DNA of 64,000 bases from Methanomassiliicoccaceae archaeon (GCA_963768775.1 CAVYIY010000005.1:79776-143775); one strand, 5' to 3'. Shown: positions 9,854-18,354, counted from the first letter of the stretch. The notes: a model not told the origin generated them from the letters alone. Program-made: numbers and translations.

Positions 9854-11458
9854 ATGGACCCAGGGACGATGCTGGTCGTGCTCCTCTTCGCCGTGCTCGG
9901 CTCGCTACTGGGCATGGGCAGCGGCTTGGTCCCTGGCATGCACGTCAACACCCTGGCGCTGCTGCTCCTTGCTGCGAGCGCTCCGCTTCTGGGCGGAATC
10001 ATCTTCCTATGTTCGGGATTCGGCCTAGGGCCGGAGCTCGCCCCTTTGCTCCTTTCGGTCCTGATAATCGCCGCCACCGTGACGCACTCGTTCGTCGACT
10101 TCCTTCCATCCTTGTTCCTTGGGATTCCAGATGAAAGCAAGGTGCTCTCCGTGCTGCCGGCGCACCGCCTGCTCCTGGCTGGCCAGAGCGGAGCGGCATT
10201 GGCCTGCGCCGCCACCGGCAGCCTGATCGGGGCGATGGTGGCGCTGCTGCTCGCAGTCCCCCTGCAACTCTTTATGCTCTCCGCCTGGGGATGCGAATGG
10301 GCCATTGAGCTAGCGATCCCGTACTTCCTGCTCCTTGTCTCCGTCCTTCTCATCGCCTCCGAAGCTCGATCGAAGAAGGTCTGCACGGCCCTTGATTCAA
10401 GGCTCGGATCGATCGCGGAAGAGGGGACGATAATCACTGCCCTCCCTCTGCCGATCGACCGCTCACCCGGCCGGATCTCCGGACGCGTCGTCGGGCAATC
10501 GATGCGCGGTTTCCTGCTTAAGAACCAATTCGGGACGTGGAAGGTTCTTGGCATCTCTGCAAGGGCTGGGATGAACGTTATCGCAGAAGGTGTCTGGGCG
10601 GTGCGGAGGAGGCCGACCCTCACCCCTCTGTTCGCGCTCGCGCTCTTCCTTGCCTCCGGCTGGCTGGGCTTCCTGGCGATGAACGTGCAGCTGCCCCTCT
10701 CGGAAGTCTATCCAGGTATGCGGCAGAGCGTGCTCTTCCCATTGCTCACTGGGTTGTTCGGCTTCCCCTCGCTCCTGCTCTCCTTACGCTCGCGGCCGGT
10801 GCCGCAGCAGGAAGGGGGTGGGGAAGCGTCCGTCTCGTTCGGCGACGGACTGAAGGGCACCGCCGCCGGCTTCCTGGCAGGCTGGCTGCCCGGGATCTCC
10901 TCCACCACTGGGACGGTGATCGCCTCCCTGTTCTCCAGACGGGGCGATTCTGACCGGGAGGAGGGCGCCAAGCGCTTCATCGTTATGGTCTCGGCCGTCG
11001 GCACTTCCTCAGCGGTCTTCAGCTTGATCGCGCTGGCGACTCTGGCGAAGGGCCGGACCGGGGCGCTGCTGACGGTGATGCAGGTGCTGGGGCTGGAGGG
11101 CTTGGGTGCCGTCGCAGCGCCGCTCTCCGCCGATTTCCTGATGCTGCTGCTCGCCACCCTGATCGGCTCCGTCCTCGGCTACTTCGCCACGCTGCGGCTG
11201 GGCGCCCTCGTCGCCAGAAAGCTGGGCGGCGTTAACCTGCTGCCGCTGAATATCGTCGTTCTCGTCTTCATACTGACCCTGGTGGCGCTGTTCAACGGCC
11301 TCTCCGGGCTGATCCTTCTCGTCAGCGCCAGCGTTCTCGGTCTTCTCCCTCCGCTCCTGGGCATCGGCAGGGTGCACCTCACCGGCTCGATGCTGCTGCC
11401 GCTCATCCTCTTCTACTTCGGCTGGCGGGATCAGCTGCTGCTCGCGCTAGGCGGTTAG
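9854..11458 (+). CDS. Tripartite tricarboxylate transporter TctA-family permease (archaeal DUF112 type) with an internal soluble insertion
   Basis: GL.PG.HVN, THSF.DF.PS.FLG.PD, LPAHRLL, PLL.GLFG, GWLPG motifs; highly hydrophobic. Confidence 0.8.
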   Translation: MDPGTMLVVLLFAVLGSLLGMGSGLVPGMHVNTLALLLLAASAPLLGGIIFLCSGFGLGPELAPLLLSVLIIAATVTHSFVDFLPSLFLGIPDESKVLSVLPAHRLLLAGQSGAALACAATGSLIGAMVALLLAVPLQLFMLSAWGCEWAIELAIPYFLLLVSVLLIASEARSKKVCTALDSRLGSIAEEGTIITALPLPIDRSPGRISGRVVGQSMRGFLLKNQFGTWKVLGISARAGMNVIAEGVWAVRRRPTLTPLFALALFLASGWLGFLAMNVQLPLSEVYPGMRQSVLFPLLTGLFGFPSLLLSLRSRPVPQQEGGGEASVSFGDGLKGTAAGFLAGWLPGISSTTGTVIASLFSRRGDSDREEGAKRFIVMVSAVGTSSAVFSLIALATLAKGRTGALLTVMQVLGLEGLGAVAAPLSADFLMLLLATLIGSVLGYFATLRLGALVARKLGGVNLLPLNIVVLVFILTLVALFNGLSGLILLVSASVLGLLPPLLGIGRVHLTGSMLLPLILFYFGWRDQLLLALGG

Positions 11459-13623
11459 GCCACACGCTCGCTGAGCGCCTCGAAGCTCCAGCCGAAGGGG
11501 AGGAGCAGGTCGGCGGTGGCGCGGAACAGGATGTTGGCGTATTCGCCGGCGTCGTACCGCTCGCTGCCGTCGAGGAACGCCGCCACCTTGACCCGATTCC
11601 AGATGCTCTTGCTCTCGCCGTCGCAGACGACGTACTCCACCGGCCGACCCGGTGGAACGTCGAAGCCTTGCTCGCTCATCTGCTTCAGCGCCGCGTAGGA
11701 GTCGTTGAACTGGGTGTACTCCTCCAGCTCCTTCGACACTCTATGCCGCACGATCAGCTGCTGCAGCGGCGTCTTTCCGTTTCGCAGATCGTCTAGGTAG
11801 CGGTCGAGGACCCCGAGCGCCTCCGGGATGAGCGCCTTGAAGCTTTGGATATCGGAGGCGCGGCAGAATACCGCCAGCATGTCGTCCTGCAGTGACCGGG
11901 CGAGCGCGATGGTATCGCTCTTCCGCAGGAAGATGCCCCGCAGCTTCAGCTCCCCGCTCTCGAACAGGCCGTAGTAGCGGTTCAGCGCGCCGATGCCGGT
12001 GGCTATCGACGGTAGGAAGACGATCCATTTGTAGACGCCATCGAGGTGCAGCGGTATGCCCACCTCCCGCTCCACGTCCCGGCAGAACGCACCCACGTCC
12101 CCATCGCCTTCGAGCCAGAGCGAGTCGACGATGCCGTGCAGGATGCTGAACCCCCGCTCCTCGGCCATGCCGCTGGCGCGGAGCAGGATATCTCTTCCGT
12201 GAGCGTTGATCGCTTCGTGGCACTCGATCCGGCCGAAGCGGGCGTTGCGGTAGCCGGTGTACCCGAAGCAGGTGACCAGCAGCCACTTCAGCAGCTGGGC
12301 GCGCTGGTCGTATATCTCCTTGTTCGGCGCGTTCTCCTTGATCAGCCGCTTCAGCTCCAGCCGGCGCTTGATCACCGGCGCCAGCACCGTCGGCAAGAGC
12401 CCGACATGCTTCTCGCATGTCCAGTAGCCGATGCCTGGCACGACGCGCGAGGAGGCGGGGCAGCAGGAGCACATCAGCGTCTCCGGCGAGATGTTGTGCC
12501 GCACGATTATGCTCGGATAGAGCGAGGCGAAGTCGACCTCGGCGATGCGCTCGTGTATGCCCACCTTCGGCTCGTAGATGAAGCCGCCGCGGTCGGAGAG
12601 GAGCAGCGCCCCGGCGGTCTTGAAGCCCTCGGGTAGGTTCTTCTTCCACAGCACCAGGTGCCCGTCCCTCACCGCCTGGTTGATCTGCATGGCGCTGATG
12701 GCGCTCCCGGGCGACAGGCGGGCCAGGTCCTGCACGGGGATCAGGCTGAGGCGGGAGATGTCGATCAGTCCGTAGATGCCGCTCTTGGTGTACGTTATCG
12801 AGCCGTCCGTGTCCAAGTGGATCCGGCCGCGCAGCTTGTGCGCCGGCGGCTTGTACATGATGCGGCCGTAGGTGAAGAAGCTCTTCTCCTTGGCCTTGCG
12901 GAAGCCCGCCTCCCGGCCCAGGTCGAGCGCGATTCCGTGCCCCTCCGCCCTCTTGGTCAGGTACTCCATGTAGAACGCGTCGCCGCCCTCGGTGTAGATG
13001 ACGTCCGGGTCGCGATCACGAACGAGCGACTGCAGCTCCTCCAGGATGCTCTCCTCCGTTCCGTCGAGTAGCACGTCGTCGAACCGCACGCTTTCGATCA
13101 CATCGTCCGGCACCGGGATGCCCCGGGAGGCGCGTACGCTCACCTTCAGCTCGGCCTTCGTTAATTCCGGAACGGGGTAGATGATCCGGTCCTGGGAGTC
13201 GAGCATGCGGTACGTCGTCCCAACGTCCAGCAGGCCCATGGGGAAGATGTCGTGCTGCAGGAAGTAGCGCTGGTCGAGGCGCAAATCCACGTTATACAGC
13301 TTGTGCTCGCGGTAGCGGCCCCAGGCGTCCACCAGCCTGGCCGTCTGCCCCAGGGAGGCGTAGTCCCCCGGCGTAACGCGCAGGAACGGCATCGGCTCGG
13401 GGTGCATCAGGGTGCTGTGCATCTCGATGCCCGTATCTGGCTCGTCGATCATGCGCAGGTCGGCTGCGACCTTGCGCAGAGCCTCGTCCGAAGCGGAGCG
13501 GACGTAGAACGACGGCATGAAGTGCCGGTCCACCAGCCGCTCGATGCCGTGCTCGGTCTTGAGCCAGACGACCATGCAGTCGCGCTGCTGGTCCGGATAG
13601 CAGTCCAGTATCCAGCCCTTCAT
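11455..13623 (-). CDS. polB2: Family B DNA polymerase, PolB2 subfamily
   Basis: Motif A DFASLYPSII, motif B K..LV.CFGY, motif C altered to HGIVDS (vs YGDTDS); no clear proofreading motifs; preceded by arCOG07300-type gene. Confidence 0.9.
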   Translation of the reverse strand: MKGWILDCYPDQQRDCMVVWLKTEHGIERLVDRHFMPSFYVRSASDEALRKVAADLRMIDEPDTGIEMHSTLMHPEPMPFLRVTPGDYASLGQTARLVDAWGRYREHKLYNVDLRLDQRYFLQHDIFPMGLLDVGTTYRMLDSQDRIIYPVPELTKAELKVSVRASRGIPVPDDVIESVRFDDVLLDGTEESILEELQSLVRDRDPDVIYTEGGDAFYMEYLTKRAEGHGIALDLGREAGFRKAKEKSFFTYGRIMYKPPAHKLRGRIHLDTDGSITYTKSGIYGLIDISRLSLIPVQDLARLSPGSAISAMQINQAVRDGHLVLWKKNLPEGFKTAGALLLSDRGGFIYEPKVGIHERIAEVDFASLYPSIIVRHNISPETLMCSCCPASSRVVPGIGYWTCEKHVGLLPTVLAPVIKRRLELKRLIKENAPNKEIYDQRAQLLKWLLVTCFGYTGYRNARFGRIECHEAINAHGRDILLRASGMAEERGFSILHGIVDSLWLEGDGDVGAFCRDVEREVGIPLHLDGVYKWIVFLPSIATGIGALNRYYGLFESGELKLRGIFLRKSDTIALARSLQDDMLAVFCRASDIQSFKALIPEALGVLDRYLDDLRNGKTPLQQLIVRHRVSKELEEYTQFNDSYAALKQMSEQGFDVPPGRPVEYVVCDGESKSIWNRVKVAAFLDGSERYDAGEYANILFRATADLLLPFGWSFEALSERVA

Positions 13624-13862
13624 GTGCCGCCTTTCCTCAGCCGGAGCAGCTCCTTCTCCTGCTCCAGGAGGATGGAGAGTAGCGCCTCCTCCACCGGATC
13701 GGTGAACGTGGCATAGGTGGAGGCGGAGGCGTGCATCCGCGCCTTGTTGGTCATTTCGTCGAAGATTTCGCGGTCGTCCTTCGGCAACGCTTTCCGGTAG
13801 TCGCTCCAGCTCTGGATGATCGATTCCAGCGTCATGCGGTACGTCGGCACTGTCCTTCCCAT
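13620..13862 (-). CDS. PolB2-associated small protein (arCOG07300-type)
   Basis: MGRTVPTYR...W..YRKAL...DRE.FD....AR.HASA pattern; ATGA overlap with polB2. Confidence 0.85.
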   Translation of the reverse strand: MGRTVPTYRMTLESIIQSWSDYRKALPKDDREIFDEMTNKARMHASASTYATFTDPVEEALLSILLEQEKELLRLRKGGT

Positions 13863-13894: not shown

Positions 13895-13929
13895 TATAAA
13901 TGGCGGAGGAGGGGAGATGCCTGAAAGTG
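13895..13929 (-). promoter_or_regulatory. Promoter: CACTTTC motif + TTTATA box, copy 1 (arCOG07300-polB2)
   Basis: 29/35 nt identical to 18320-18354; TATA ~33 nt upstream of ATG 13862. Confidence 0.7.
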
Positions 13930-13937
13930 GTACCTCA

Positions 13938-14402
13938 CTAGGTGGGCTTCTGCGGGTTCTTCTCCAACTTGGATACGTCGAAGCCCTTGGCTTGTATGCG
14001 CTTGAGCAGCTCGCCGTACACAGCCTCATCCATCTGAGGCGTCCTTGAGAGTATCCAGAGATACTTGCGGGACTCGTCGCCCACCACGGCGTATTCGTAA
14101 TCTTTGCCAAGCTCAAGTATCCAGTAGTTGCCGGAAAAAGGCCAGAAGAATGTCACTTTGAGTTTCGCGTTCGTCGCGGTGTCGACCACCCGGGCCTTGC
14201 CTTTGGCCGTCTTTAATCTGCCGTTGAAGTCTCCTTCGTAGCCACTGTTCGATACTCTGACCTTTCCGTCCGGAAGCAGCGAGTAGTCTGCTGTTACGCC
14301 AACCAATCCTCTCTCGAACCTTTGCGGGAACTTCGCTATTTCAAACCAGGTCCCCATGTACCTTTTCACATCAACGTTCTCAACGGTCTTGAGCTCAGGC
14401 AT
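13938..14402 (-). CDS. Lipocalin (Blc-like) without signal peptide
   Basis: VD..RYMG.WFEIA, AKLKV.FFWPF.G.YW, YLWILSRTP. Confidence 0.9.
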   Translation of the reverse strand: MPELKTVENVDVKRYMGTWFEIAKFPQRFERGLVGVTADYSLLPDGKVRVSNSGYEGDFNGRLKTAKGKARVVDTATNAKLKVTFFWPFSGNYWILELGKDYEYAVVGDESRKYLWILSRTPQMDEAVYGELLKRIQAKGFDVSKLEKNPQKPT

Positions 14403-14452
14403 ATATTGTCCATTATTGCATCAATGGATTAATGTTGCTAGGAATGGGCAGG

Positions 14453-15388
14453 CTAGAGCTCTATGCCGTTGTGTTCGGCCATGATCAGGTAGAATGATGC
14501 CAGCCCACGCCACTTCCCCCATTTGGATGCGAGCGATCTCACCTGGCTGGCGGAAGTAGCCTTGCCGTCGAAGTAGAAGCGAGAAATGGTCCTCTTTATG
14601 CCCACGTCGTCCGCTGGAATCGCGTCGAACCTCCCCATACCTCGGATCATTACCAGTTCTGCGGTCCAGGGGCCAATGCCTCGAAGATTGGTCAATTCTT
14701 CGATTATATCCTCTGGACTTGAACGTCCTCGAAATGATTCCAAGTCGATCCTGCCCTCCACCACCGCCTTCGCCGAATCGCGAATGTACTCTGCCTTCCG
14801 AATACTAAGCCCCAGATTGCGCATTTCTTCGATCGTCGCCTTGCTTAAGGACGCGGGTTGCGGAAAGGCGTAGTAGATCGCATTATCGATCTTCACCCTC
14901 TCCCCGAATCTCTTTATCAGTCTGAGCTGCAGGACTCTAGCCACATCCAATGAGATCTGTTGTTCGATTATCGAATCGACCAGAGCTTCGAAAACGGTTT
15001 CGGTCCTTGGGCTCTTTAACCCCTTGAGCTTGAGTACCAATTGGGTGAGGACAGGATCATTTCTGGAGGCAATTCGATAGAAAGGCCTCAGGTCCAGCTG
15101 GAGGTTTAGTAGTGCGTTCACTTTGCTCTCAACCTGATCCTGATCATAGTCTGAAGTATGAACAAAATACGTTTGAACATCCAGCAGCGGCCTGTCTATA
15201 TTCCCTATCGAACGAATCCGGCACAAGAACGGCCCGGAATCGACCCTTAGCATCTGCCAGAACGTTCCATCGTTGAACGCGCGGAATTGTCTATCGCCAC
15301 CCGAAAAGATCTTCGCGCTCAGGTCAAAATCATATGGAGGGGTTGGCTCAAGAAGGATTGTCCGGCTTATGCTATTCATTCTCATCAT
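14453..15388 (-). CDS. alkA: DNA-3-methyladenine glycosylase II (AlkA, HhH-GPD family)
   Basis: FEALV.SII.QQIS, FP.P..L, LRGIGPWTAE helix-hairpin-helix, PADD. Confidence 0.85.
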   Translation of the reverse strand: MMRMNSISRTILLEPTPPYDFDLSAKIFSGGDRQFRAFNDGTFWQMLRVDSGPFLCRIRSIGNIDRPLLDVQTYFVHTSDYDQDQVESKVNALLNLQLDLRPFYRIASRNDPVLTQLVLKLKGLKSPRTETVFEALVDSIIEQQISLDVARVLQLRLIKRFGERVKIDNAIYYAFPQPASLSKATIEEMRNLGLSIRKAEYIRDSAKAVVEGRIDLESFRGRSSPEDIIEELTNLRGIGPWTAELVMIRGMGRFDAIPADDVGIKRTISRFYFDGKATSASQVRSLASKWGKWRGLASFYLIMAEHNGIEL

Positions 15389-15825
15389 TCTTTGTGAGTC
15401 CTTATTATCAGGACTGGGCAAGAAGCGAACCTGACGACCTTCTCTGCAACGCTCCCCATGAGGAGATGGGGCAGCCCTGTGTGTCCGAACGTTCCCATGA
15501 CGATCAGATCGTAGTCCCTGGATGCTTCGATGATCTCGTTGGCCGGAACACCCTGCCTGACCACTTTCGTGACTTCGATGTCCATCCCCTTGCCTTCCTG
15601 GTAGACTTGTTCGACAGCGGTGTTTGCTTCCTCCTCCAGATAGGAGATATTGTCCACCGCGGCCCTCCTGAAGCCTCTGTTGGCATAGAGGGAGCCGTCA
15701 TCCACTATGCTCATCGCAGTCACCTTAGCGCCCATGAGCTTGGCCAGTGCCAGTCCTTGAGCGGCCGCAACGTTCGCATTCTCGCTTCCATCGGTTGGGA
15801 TAAGAATCTTCTCGAACGGCTTCAT
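15385..15825 (-). CDS. Universal stress protein
   Basis: KILIPTDGS, G.PA.EI, DLIVMG..G.TG....MGSVAEKVVR...CPVL. Confidence 0.95.
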   Translation of the reverse strand: MKPFEKILIPTDGSENANVAAAQGLALAKLMGAKVTAMSIVDDGSLYANRGFRRAAVDNISYLEEEANTAVEQVYQEGKGMDIEVTKVVRQGVPANEIIEASRDYDLIVMGTFGHTGLPHLLMGSVAEKVVRFASCPVLIIRTHKE

Positions 15826-16058
15826 CGTGACGTACTATTTTCATTCGTGGATAATCCAGTTTTCGGTCGTCCCCAGAACTATGGAGAGTTCGAGAAGAAG
15901 GGGGGGGATGATAGAAATCGAGTATTATGATCTTCGCCAAATTGCAGCATGGCGGAAAAGATGTTCCTTCTCTCGCCCAACGATTAGAGCCCACTGATTC
16001 TTGAAGTATGTATACTGAAGTTATCGATCAGCCATTAACGCGGATGTTTCTAGATGCC

Positions 16059-17399
16059 TTAAATCGTCTTTCTTCTGTTCCGAATGGTCAGGAAAAAGAG
16101 CAATCCTGCGACCATTATTATGCCCACAACGATTGGCAGGGCCAAGAAGGAGATTTGATCATCTCCGCCAGCAGTATTATTGACTATTGCATACAGTTGA
16201 GAGACACTGCCGACTCGCAAAACGGCCACTTCTCCCCCTTTCAGCACACTAATAAATGTCGCAAAATCTCCGCCGATGTGTGCATTCGGCAATGTGACGT
16301 TCCAGATGAATTGCCCCTGCATATCCATACCGGATACTGTTATGCCATGGAGCACGATCAGAATTCCATCCGCCGACATGATTGGCAAGAATCCCAATGG
16401 GTCTGTTACATTGGTTATCCAAATCACCGTGCCATTTCCATCCAGGCATTGGATTTGATATCCTTCATGGGACGTAATGAATATTCTGCCCTCATTCGAA
16501 ACCACAGGCAAGGTCCATCCTCCAATAGAGGCATCGATCTTGTCCCAGGCCGTTGTTCCATTCACACCGATGCGGGCCAAGTAGTTGGAGGATACATACA
16601 GGAGCGAATTGCCGTCCAGTATGGAGACTATAGCAGCGCCTCCATTTGTGTGGTGCGATGAACTCCAGTTCCACAGAAGAACGCCTTCTGCTGATAGGCA
16701 GGTTACGCCATACTCCGTGGGAACGAATAGTGTATCATTGGTGGATACTGCGATCACTGACGTACCGCTCCCGTTTAGAGAAAAGAACCAGTCTAAGGAG
16801 CCAGTTGAGTTGACAACGAAGACCCCGATTTGCGTGGATTGCAGCGAGGAGAGACGCGGATCGGCTGTTGTGTTGTCCACCAATCCGCACACAGCGATTG
16901 ATCCACTACTAAGAGCAACCGGTGCACTTGTTGCCCGATTCAATCCGGTGAATCTCCATAGAACCCCCCCTCCGAGCCAATAGCATATAGACCTTGATCG
17001 CCGAAGATGTCGGTGCCGACCAATATCGTGCCATTTGGGAGAATCATCGGTGGTTGGCTGATTTGGGCATTTAGATACACGGTCCATCGCTGACTGCCGT
17101 CGCTTCGGAGACTTGAAACGTCACCGCCATCGCTAGCGATTACTAGCCCACCTCGCTCATCGGGAACAAATGGTGCCCCACAGAAGGGAGCATCTACTGT
17201 CCAGGCAATCTTTCCCTCGGTTATGTTAATGCTCGAATCGAACACGCCTCTGTTAGATGGGCCTCCTCTGAATTGCCCCCATTGTCCATTAATAGCTTCA
17301 GTTGCCTCGATGCTGAGAGGCTGTTGAGAGTAGAACGAGCATTATGATCGCTATCAACGACGCAGCAATCGGCGCAGGTCGGAGCAGGGCAATCTTCAC
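16059..17399 (-). pseudogene. PQQ-like beta-propeller surface protein with signal peptide and C-terminal TM anchor; two frameshifts (~17325 and a G7 tract at 16964-16970)
   Basis: Signal-like MKIALLRPAPIAASLIAIIML, then W.QFRGGP.NRG in a second frame, repeated G...W blade motifs across frames, C-terminal TM helix + RNRRK. Confidence 0.7.
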
Positions 17400-17522
17400 T
17401 GTTCGCTCCAAATCCCCCGCTCCTTCACGGCTCATTCCTCTCCCGCACCATTTGAATAGGATCTCATCCTTCGAATGTCATCTTCCCCGTCGATATTTAA
17501 TACCTGTTAGAACGCTCAAAGC

Positions 17523-18285
17523 TCATCTGACGGAAAACTCGTCCAGCGTTCTCTGGTAGTACGGCACCGGGTGGTACATCATGCTCCTGTCCTCGTTCAC
17601 CAGGCTGAGGCGCAGGGCGGCGCGGGAGGCGTTCTCGATGCGCAGCACCCGGTCCGCGGAGGAGTACATCAGGCTGCGCAGGCTCTTCTTGAACAGCAGC
17701 TTCGACAGCCCGAAGTTCGTGATCAGCGTGATCACGTCGTGCCGCTTGGTGACACCCTGGATGGCGGCGATGCAGCGCTGCATCAGCTGGAGCGACTCGG
17801 ACCAGCGCACGTCCTTGTCCTGGAACAGGTCGGGGAAGCAGGAGACGATGAGCATGCCCGCCCCGGTCCTCTCCAGCTCTGGCTCGAGCATCTCGTCGAT
17901 CAGGGTGACCATCTGGTAGGCGGTGAACGCCCGAGAGACGTTAATGCTCTCCAGCGCCTCCTGCGCGTTCACGCGCTGGCGCTTGCACAGCCCCGCCATG
18001 TGGTAAGGATTGATGGAGTTGCCCCCGTCCACCCACACCACCTCCCGTCCGTCGCCGACCACCTGGTTGATGCAGAGCAGGTGCACCATGTCGAACAGCA
18101 GGCGGTCGGAGCTGTCGATCAGCGTCACCTGCGAGGACGGGAATCCGCCGATGAAGGCGTCCAGCGCGGCGATGGAGGTGTCGACGCTCCGCGGCAGCGC
18201 CGGGCCGAGCGCCACGCTGCGTCTCGGCCGCGCTCATCTCGATGCTGGGTTCCTGCGGCAGGCCTGCTTCGGTGTAGTGGGTCAT
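17523..18285 (-). CDS. Inactivated RadA/RecA-fold protein of the PolB2 module (ORF from GTG 18215; likely start ATG 18285 is out of frame)
   Basis: T.I..LD..IGGF, WVDGGNS.NPY, SRAFTAYQ; no Walker A lysine. Confidence 0.8.
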
Positions 18286-18319
18286 CTCGACCTCCCCTAG
18301 CTCAGTTGGGGTTGCACGT

Positions 18320-18354
18320 TATAAATCGGTGCGGGGGGGAGATGCCCGAAAGTG
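18320..18354 (-). promoter_or_regulatory. Promoter: CACTTTC motif + TTTATA box, copy 2 (RadA-like gene)
   Basis: 29/35 nt identical to 13895-13929; TATA ~35 nt upstream of ATG 18285. Confidence 0.7.

Follow-up and report, generated by a model that had tools for sequence, protein, structure and literature searches.

Whether archaea beyond the Sulfolobales possess a coordinated DNA-damage regulon, and how one would be controlled, is the question raised by a 64,000-nucleotide (nt) stretch of Methanomassiliicoccaceae DNA, hereafter the window, taken from a metagenome-assembled genome (MAG) of 2.12 Mb on 8 contigs that is 81% complete. The window carries the three genes of a PolB2 mutasome, encoding iRadA, PPB2 and PolB2, as an operon split into two halves, and a first-pass annotation had pointed to a 35-nt element duplicated before both halves, which it read as a lineage-specific DNA-damage box. 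Our analysis suggests, with a probability of about 0.7, that a single sequence-specific regulator binds both copies and that these define a small regulon of recombination and damage-tolerance genes. Together with its gene set, the box points to an SOS-like repair network not yet described in this methanogen group.

A repeated promoter box with fixed geometry

Read on the minus strand, the stretches at 13895-13929 and 18320-18354 are identical at 29 of 35 positions without gaps, exactly as annotated, and a binomial estimate with a match probability of 0.26 predicts only about 0.006 such pairs per 64-kb window. Both copies share a CACTTTC core, one purine, GGCATCTCCCC, a C-rich spacer and TTTATA. 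The 19-mer CACTTTCNGGCATCTCCCC matched twice in the window at no more than 3 mismatches (shuffle mean, 0.16; 1 of 100 shuffles reached 2), and across the assembly it occurred at 2, 5 and 26 sites when up to 2, 3 and 4 mismatches, respectively, were allowed. Because the pair is rare by chance and only two genomic sites lie within 2 mismatches, the repeat is real and does not belong to a dispersed repeat family. The fixed distance to TTTATA that had been proposed was likewise found, the first T of the hexamer lying 29 nt from the core start in both copies, that is, 22 nt past the core end; from the hexamer to the ATG the gap is 32 nt for PPB2 (ATG at 13862) and 34 nt for the RadA-like gene, iRadA (ATG at 18285). 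At both window promoters, YANTTTC is followed by one purine, five further bases and then a CYCYCC run, with the TATA element exactly 22 nt after the core. The box spans approximately 20 bp and is asymmetric, dyad symmetry being absent.

Conservation of the box in relatives

Conservation was followed in an order-level sample of 41 genomes (40 genomes of the same order plus this one) and in a wider set of Methanomassiliicoccaceae and other Thermoplasmata MAG contigs collected by iRadA alignment, in which an upstream stretch of 100 nt or more was available at 76 of 80 loci. In the order-level sample, iRadA was detected in 31 of 41 genomes, this one included, and the strict pattern preceded it in 29 of the 31, the remaining two having a one-base core variant (G006) and a locus cut by a contig end (G031). 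In the wider set, YANTTTC-R-N5-CYC stood before iRadA at 72/76 loci and its reversed sequence at 0/76. A position weight matrix (PWM) built from 39 distinct sites upstream of iRadA and PPB2 reached at least 12 bits at 60/76 of these loci, against 0/76 for the reversed matrix. Both sets thus show the box conserved at a protein identity of about 50%. In the more distant Thermoplasmata, the core becomes TAGTTTC, with the C-run and the spacing to a TTTAAC-type TATA element kept. The supposed lineage specificity therefore did not hold, since the extended pattern is class-wide and reaches into part of the phylum, its genus-level portion being just the letters GGCAT. PolB2 identity across the compared genomes is only 40-70%, a distance at which neutral intergenic DNA would not align, so the box is, judging from these alignments, under selection rather than neutral.

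The logo adds detail at its free positions. Position 8 is a purine, never C or T, and position 12 is A (0.79). Positions 14, 16 and 18 are C (0.91-0.96) and are separated by pyrimidines, after which come C at 19-21 and CA at 24-25. Ordinary promoters of this genome (a crude set, n = 55) have an A-rich B recognition element (BRE) at -7 to -4; the box promoters retain mainly the A at -5 within C-rich surroundings. This pattern suggests that the box promoters have a suboptimal BRE and may need help in recruiting the basal machinery.

These data also bear on whether the pair is a neutral local duplication, in which a promoter fragment was copied upon gene insertion and the likeness merely reflects recent common descent. 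The copies do lie 4.4 kb apart on the same strand, and the insertion that they flank is common to same-genus genomes. Against this, 14 genomes from several genera, with PolB2 proteins only 55-70% identical, retain the PPB2 copy, the box also precedes unlinked genes on other contigs (radA, a small open reading frame [ORF] and a GyrI-like gene), and the likeness of the two copies is concentrated in the box, the 8 nt preceding the TATA element being different. Given the conserved sites at the PPB2, radA and small-ORF promoters and the genome-wide pattern counts described below, we rejected this explanation, whose probability is close to nil. The annotated view of a conserved promoter box, as opposed to a neutral duplication, is thus upheld by conservation before iRadA, PPB2 and radA.

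Two promoters for one mutasome

PolB2, PPB2 (arCOG07300) and iRadA have been described as subunits of a PolB2 mutasome by Timinskas et al. (2025; PMC11791011). In the window, the set consists of PolB2, the small PPB2 and a RadA paralogue apparently devoid of an ATPase site, all co-oriented, their contiguity being broken by a 3.6-kb insertion. PPB2 directly precedes polB2 in 29 of 30 loci (identity, 62-97%) and comes straight after the iRadA stop codon in 16 of 29 relatives' loci; the order iRadA-PPB2-PolB2 is that of the ancestral operon, split in the window by three unrelated genes. This operon reportedly goes back to a description by Makarova in 2014.

PPB2 has an intergenic region of its own in 13 loci plus one further genome (G001), and each of these split-type regions contains YACTTTC exactly 22 nt before a TATA-like hexamer. 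The split-type loci vary from one with no inserted gene and a gap of about 265 nt (G005) to those with insertions of 1-4 kb. Both the box before each half of the module (iRadA and PPB2-polB2 promoters) and its conservation upstream of polB2 in relatives, as anticipated in the first-pass annotation, are thus evident. A PWM scan of 13938-17087 found no box at any of the three inserted genes. These sites suggest that the box keeps the split mutasome under shared control: selection appears to have maintained co-regulation of the three subunits after operon breakage, which in turn supports the view that they form one working complex. The mutasome paper describes the same three genes in the same order and mentions operons "rarely interspersed with other genes"; the word "promoter" has 0 occurrences in it, and it gives no account of the conserved box or of a second copy where the operon is interrupted (PMC11791011).

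Genes that carry the box

When the 35-nt PWM was run on the genome, the three top sites scored 49.3 bits (iRadA), 48.2 bits (PPB2) and 37.2 bits, the next reached 14.7 bits, and the maximum of the reversed PWM was 9.5 bits. The 37.2-bit site, found 26 kb ahead of the window on the contig that holds it, precedes an ORF of 50 amino acids (aa) with a good ribosome-binding site. A box-only scan that called for a TATA-like hexamer 11-22 nt past the core added the GyrI-like gene (spacer, 19) and radA (spacer, 18); such a hexamer accompanied 7/103 box-only matches versus 2/107 in the control. Over the 41 genomes, the pattern YAYTTTCRNNNNNCNC-N8-13-TWTAWA (18-23 nt spacing) yielded 97 matches versus 2 with the backwards control, and a looser pattern yielded 89 versus 33.

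The radA gene is the most consistent target. At 12 bits or more, the box was scored in its promoter in 33 of the order's 38 genomes (34 of 38 by pattern; controls, 0/38), always 64-74 nt upstream of the ATG, and the box is also present in families without the PolB2 operon. Elsewhere in the phylum, 11/54 radA promoters from several families reached at least 12 bits versus 0/54 in the control, and nothing box-like was seen at the radA promoters of AT-rich families. In one family of the order (G032, G028, G040, G036; loci L100, L135, L140, L141), radA itself is 491-499 aa long and contains an intein, with a Pfam Intein_splicing match in L100.

The small ORF occurs in 16 of the 41 genomes searched, with the box 22 nt before a TATA element in 16/16. 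Its product has an acidic N-terminus, the motif S/G-W-E-E/D-x-Y-x-L-Y-G (WEExYxLYG), PSxGE..PTP and often a WF end, no Pfam match was found for it, and it may be an effector of the regulon. An RPA-like OB-fold gene is boxed in four relatives (G008, G014, G015, G020) and has a weak copy in this genome; the GyrI-like gene is boxed here and in three genomes of a distant family (G029, G033, G037), the Hjc resolvase gene in one genome (G027), and a GNAT gene in two genomes, one of them G015; the copy before the GNAT gene of this genome is weaker. Since the same site precedes radA, the RPA-like, GyrI-like and GNAT genes and the ORF of about 50 aa, the gene set argues for a small recombination and damage-tolerance regulon. 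Of the enrichments proposed in the annotation, those at radA and, in four relatives, at an RPA-like gene were thus observed. AhpC-type and zinc-phospholipase-C/P1-nuclease-like genes are boxed in one distant family; in this genome, the AhpC-type gene has no box and the zinc-phospholipase-C/P1-nuclease-like gene has only a 6-bit site. A 22-bit CAGTTTC-type site 55 nt before the ATG of an XPD/Rad3-type helicase gene (C8:9862-11760, minus strand; locus L109) was not counted, because no TATA element stands at the expected spacing and the reversed PWM also reaches 22 bits.

Relation to known damage-response elements

In the Sulfolobales, the closest published counterpart is the DNA damage-responsive element (DDRE) recognized by Orc1-2 (PMC6061795, PMC9738581, PMC12490963). 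In S. islandicus, the footprint of Orc1-2 at promoters induced by damage covers 5'-ANTTTC-3', and induction is lost once this hexamer is mutated; dpo2 (PolB2) requires Orc1-2 for its induction, and some genes are repressed by the same protein (Sun et al. 2018, PMC6061795). The hexamer is the same here, where the ANTTTC core is present in both window copies, 72/76 iRadA loci and 34/38 radA promoters, and ACTTTC, ATTTTC and AGTTTC all occur; also alike are the asymmetry of the site, its position upstream of the BRE/TATA and the membership of PolB2 genes in the regulon. The 20-bp consensus around the Sulfolobus core, AATAGTTTCRGWDTACTCWS (PMC6061795), shares TAGTTTCR and, at equal offset, ACTC with the TAGTTTC-type boxes of Thermoplasmata outside the Methanomassiliicoccales, whereas the five bases between differ. 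Unlike the Sulfolobales element, the box belongs to a Thermoplasmatota methanogen, has a strong C-run after the core and a fixed distance of 18-22 nt to the TATA element, and serves radA, RPA-like, GyrI-like and new small-ORF genes rather than ups, ced or tfb3, with no box at an orc gene. Damage induction of the Orc1-2 type and Orc binding are known for Sulfolobus, whereas here they are predictions.

A second counterpart comes from Halobacterium sp. NRC-1, in which TTTCACTTTCA lies about 50 nt before the start codon of radA1, a gene induced by ultraviolet (UV)-B, and also before three other genes, with comparable words in the radA promoters of Methanospirillum hungatei and further haloarchaea (Boubriak et al. 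2008, PMC2556686). This motif contains CACTTTCA of the Methanomassiliicoccaceae box letter for letter, so that the likening of the box to both the Sulfolobus and the Halobacterium motifs proved sound. The distance to the radA start codon is about 50 nt in Halobacterium versus 64-74 nt in this order (YACTTTC type, 33/38 genomes). The halobacterial motif is a tandem TTTCA repeat, for which no C-run was described and which marks a different gene set (top6B, vng17, vng280). That repeat is absent from this genome, in which each box has one core; paired cores (YACTTTC, 2-16 bases, YACTTTC), reminiscent of the halobacterial tandem, were seen only in a few relatives, at the radA promoters of loci L151 and L156 and also in L103. 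No published work joining the Halobacterium motif with ANTTTC, and none linking a damage-responsive element to Thermoplasmata, was found in the literature searched, which omits most subscription journals. The box links two motifs published separately, in 2008 for Halobacterium and in 2017-18 for Sulfolobus, and is best seen, on the strength of this resemblance, as a Thermoplasmatota variant of the ANTTTC-type archaeal damage element.

In the bacterial SOS response, a recombinase gene, an error-prone polymerase and a small protein have one short LexA operator in common, and the set described here is organized alike, a single short operator serving the recombinase gene, the genes of the error-prone polymerase complex and that of a small protein whose role is unknown. 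A GyrI-like gene is among those boxed here, and sbmC/gyrI of Escherichia coli is SOS-induced. Unlike in the LexA regulon, there is no LexA here, and the site is asymmetric, lies upstream of the TATA element and is probably an activator site instead of a repressor operator.

What reads the box

Our working model is built on the observed site, geometry, conservation and gene set, and its remaining parts are conditional. The sites lie just upstream of the BRE/TATA, with the core 18-22 nt before the TATA element, which corresponds to about -45 to -60 relative to where transcription is expected to start. When unrelated genes insert into the ancestral operon, the downstream PPB2-polB2 half would keep or gain its own promoter copy, and all three mutasome subunits would therefore stay under one control. 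After DNA damage, an activator would bind the box and help TBP/TFB onto a promoter with an only partly canonical BRE. The best candidate class for this regulator may be an Orc1/Cdc6 paralogue acting like Orc1-2 of the Sulfolobales, its winged helix lying on ANTTTC and the initiator-specific motif (ISM) of its AAA+ domain on the opposite-strand G-run. The Orc1-2 site is asymmetric, the ISM of the initiator Orc1 contacts a G-track, and the contact made by the ISM of Orc1-2 is unknown (Liu et al. 2022, PMC9738581); by analogy, the run of C behind the core, read as a G-run on the opposite strand, is an obvious candidate ISM contact.

Two Orc1/Cdc6 genes are present in the genome. The first is Orc1-1-like (PDB comparison, 2qby_A, 4e-90), lies behind origin recognition box (ORB)-like repeats and presumably encodes the initiator at oriC. 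At least two such repeats, TCCAYCGGAAATRAAGGGGT, were located at C8 ~192,950-193,250 (locus L063) upstream of this gene and likely mark the replication origin. The expected enrichment at orc/cdc6 genes failed to appear, no promoter box being found before either gene; among the origin repeats, a 17.5-bit CTCTTTC-type match lies 259 nt upstream of the Orc1-1-like gene. An RR.T helix with wing arginines, considered as an Orc1-2 signature (PMC12490963), was dropped as uninformative because RRVT is present in the initiator-like paralogue but missing from the divergent protein. Neighbourhoods of polB2 have been reported as enriched in orc1/cdc6 (PMC11791011).

The broadest form of the proposal is that the box is the Thermoplasmatota form of an ancient pan-archaeal damage operator, represented also by the Sulfolobales Orc1-2 site and by the UV-induced radA of haloarchaea, and read by an Orc1/Cdc6 paralogue through winged helix and ISM. 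We regard it as tentative, with the odds leaning somewhat against it. If true, archaea would share an Orc-based SOS-like network with RadA and the PolB2 mutasome as its ancestral core, which in this order would also drive the undescribed protein of about 50 aa, possibly a checkpoint or polymerase-switch effector.

Weighing the regulon

Several observations count against the proposed damage regulon and its Orc-type regulator. Since radA and RPA have housekeeping functions as well, the regulon might be tied to replication or the cell cycle instead of damage. The pattern with which the sites were gathered predetermined PWM positions 1-7 and the TATA element, which leaves positions 8-29 as the free evidence, and the genomes are kin, so that conservation counts overstate independence. 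In this genome, sites beyond the top three are weaker, and box-only matches of about 22 bits also arise with the reversed PWM; outside the order, just 11/54 radA promoters pass the 12-bit threshold. As for the regulator, the second Orc1/Cdc6 protein is divergent, its best PDB match being 1fnn (3e-45) and the Aeropyrum Orc1-2 homologue 1w5s reaching only 3e-20. No box was found within 300 nt upstream of its gene, which abuts the preceding gene, whereas orc1-2 of Sulfolobus is autoregulated. In 140 loci, no orc gene was found within 1.5 kb of iRadA or polB2. Because of the boxless divergent gene and the lack of an orc gene beside the operon, the Orc hypothesis draws on the likeness of the site to the Sulfolobus element, not on this genome's proteins.

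The housekeeping role of some targets also underlies an alternative in which the box is a regulator site tied to replication, cell cycle or growth state, and recombination and fork proteins are coordinated constitutively or periodically. It would account for radA being the most universal target (33-34/38 genomes) and for the RPA-like target in four relatives, both proteins being needed without exogenous damage. We nevertheless consider this explanation unlikely: the other targets have damage-tolerance functions, namely the PolB2 mutasome, whose Sulfolobus counterpart is damage induced (PMC6061795, PMC11791011), Hjc and the GyrI-like protein; the identical core marks UV-B-induced genes in Halobacterium (PMC2556686) and genes induced by 4-nitroquinoline 1-oxide (NQO) in Sulfolobus (PMC6061795); and the orc1/cdc6 promoters are without the box. 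A LexA-like repressor operator, at which a repressor would occupy the interval between core and BRE until damage leads to its removal, appears still less probable. The conservation, which takes in the C-run and is unbroken between the core and the BRE-proximal CA at -6/-5, would suit a covering protein able to occlude TFB. The most conserved part, however, lies 22-29 nt upstream of the TATA element, where archaeal activators usually bind, repressors usually overlapping the TATA/BRE or the start site. Repression by Orc1-2 is known for some genes, but mutation of the Sulfolobus core abolished induction and gave no derepression (PMC6061795).

A regulon under one damage-responsive activator therefore remains our preferred reading, within which the annotated damage box stands as a conserved promoter element on the split mutasome, radA and RPA-like genes and falls short in lineage specificity and at orc1/cdc6. 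It provides a concrete, testable operator for a whole methanogen order, some members of which are cultured, consisting of a logo, a fixed TATA geometry and a list of target genes: RadA, the PolB2 mutasome, RPA-like, GyrI-like, Hjc, GNAT and the new small protein.

Features of the locus

The features of the locus are collected in Table 1.

Table 1. Coordinates of promoter elements and genes at the split PolB2 locus and of the boxed small ORF (window positions unless a contig is given)
Feature	Position	Strand	Remarks
PolB2, 722 aa, catalytic subunit of PolB2 mutasome	11455..13623	-	Pfam DNA_pol_B 5.6e-27, DNA_pol_B_exo1 7e-08; relatives' orthologues 53-94% identical
PPB2/arCOG07300-like small protein, 80 aa	13620..13862	-	Stop overlaps polB2 start
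TATA box TTTATA, PPB2-polB2 promoter	13895..13900	-	32 nt before ATG; hexamer position kept in 13 split-type relatives
Upstream box copy 1: CACTTTC, A, five bases, C/T run	13909..13929	-	28.3 bits box PWM, 48.2 bits 35-nt PWM; reversed-PWM maximum 9.5
Lipocalin-like gene, inserted	13938..14402	-	Pfam
HhH-GPD glycosylase-like gene, inserted	14453..15421	-	Pfam
PQQ beta-propeller gene, inserted	16059..17087	-	Pfam
iRadA (inactivated RadA paralogue)	17523..18285	-	Pfam Rad51 1.8e-05; ATG 18285 behind GGAGG; body 17523-18215
TATA box TTTATA, iRadA promoter	18320..18325	-	34 nt before ATG
Upstream box copy 2: CACTTTC, G, five bases, C run	18334..18354	-	28.7 bits box PWM, 49.3 bits 35-nt PWM; 29-nt offset to TATA
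~50-aa ORF, conserved	C5:53201-53350 (locus L088:1570-1719), 26 kb before window start	+	Box 22 nt before TATA

The iRadA translation shows no discernible Walker A sequence. The RadA-like start codon annotated behind the box stands as far as its spacing and the preceding GGAGG are concerned, but it is out of frame with the body of the gene, owing to a surplus base near 18217 by comparison with three genomes of the genus, in which the orthologues are open for 252-258 aa. Further apparent single-base frameshifts occur in the assembly at radA (C1:25076-25678) and at one orc1/cdc6 gene (C8:191809-192904), the relatives' frames again being open. Since these genes of the same assembly also look frameshifted, the iRadA case was taken as a probable consensus error, and all three are probably assembly errors and not pseudogenes. 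PPB2 gave no Pfam match, the Pfam query sequence having been one base off frame. The HhH-GPD gene, which resembles a base-excision glycosylase, sits between repair genes; as it is without a box, its placement may be coincidental.

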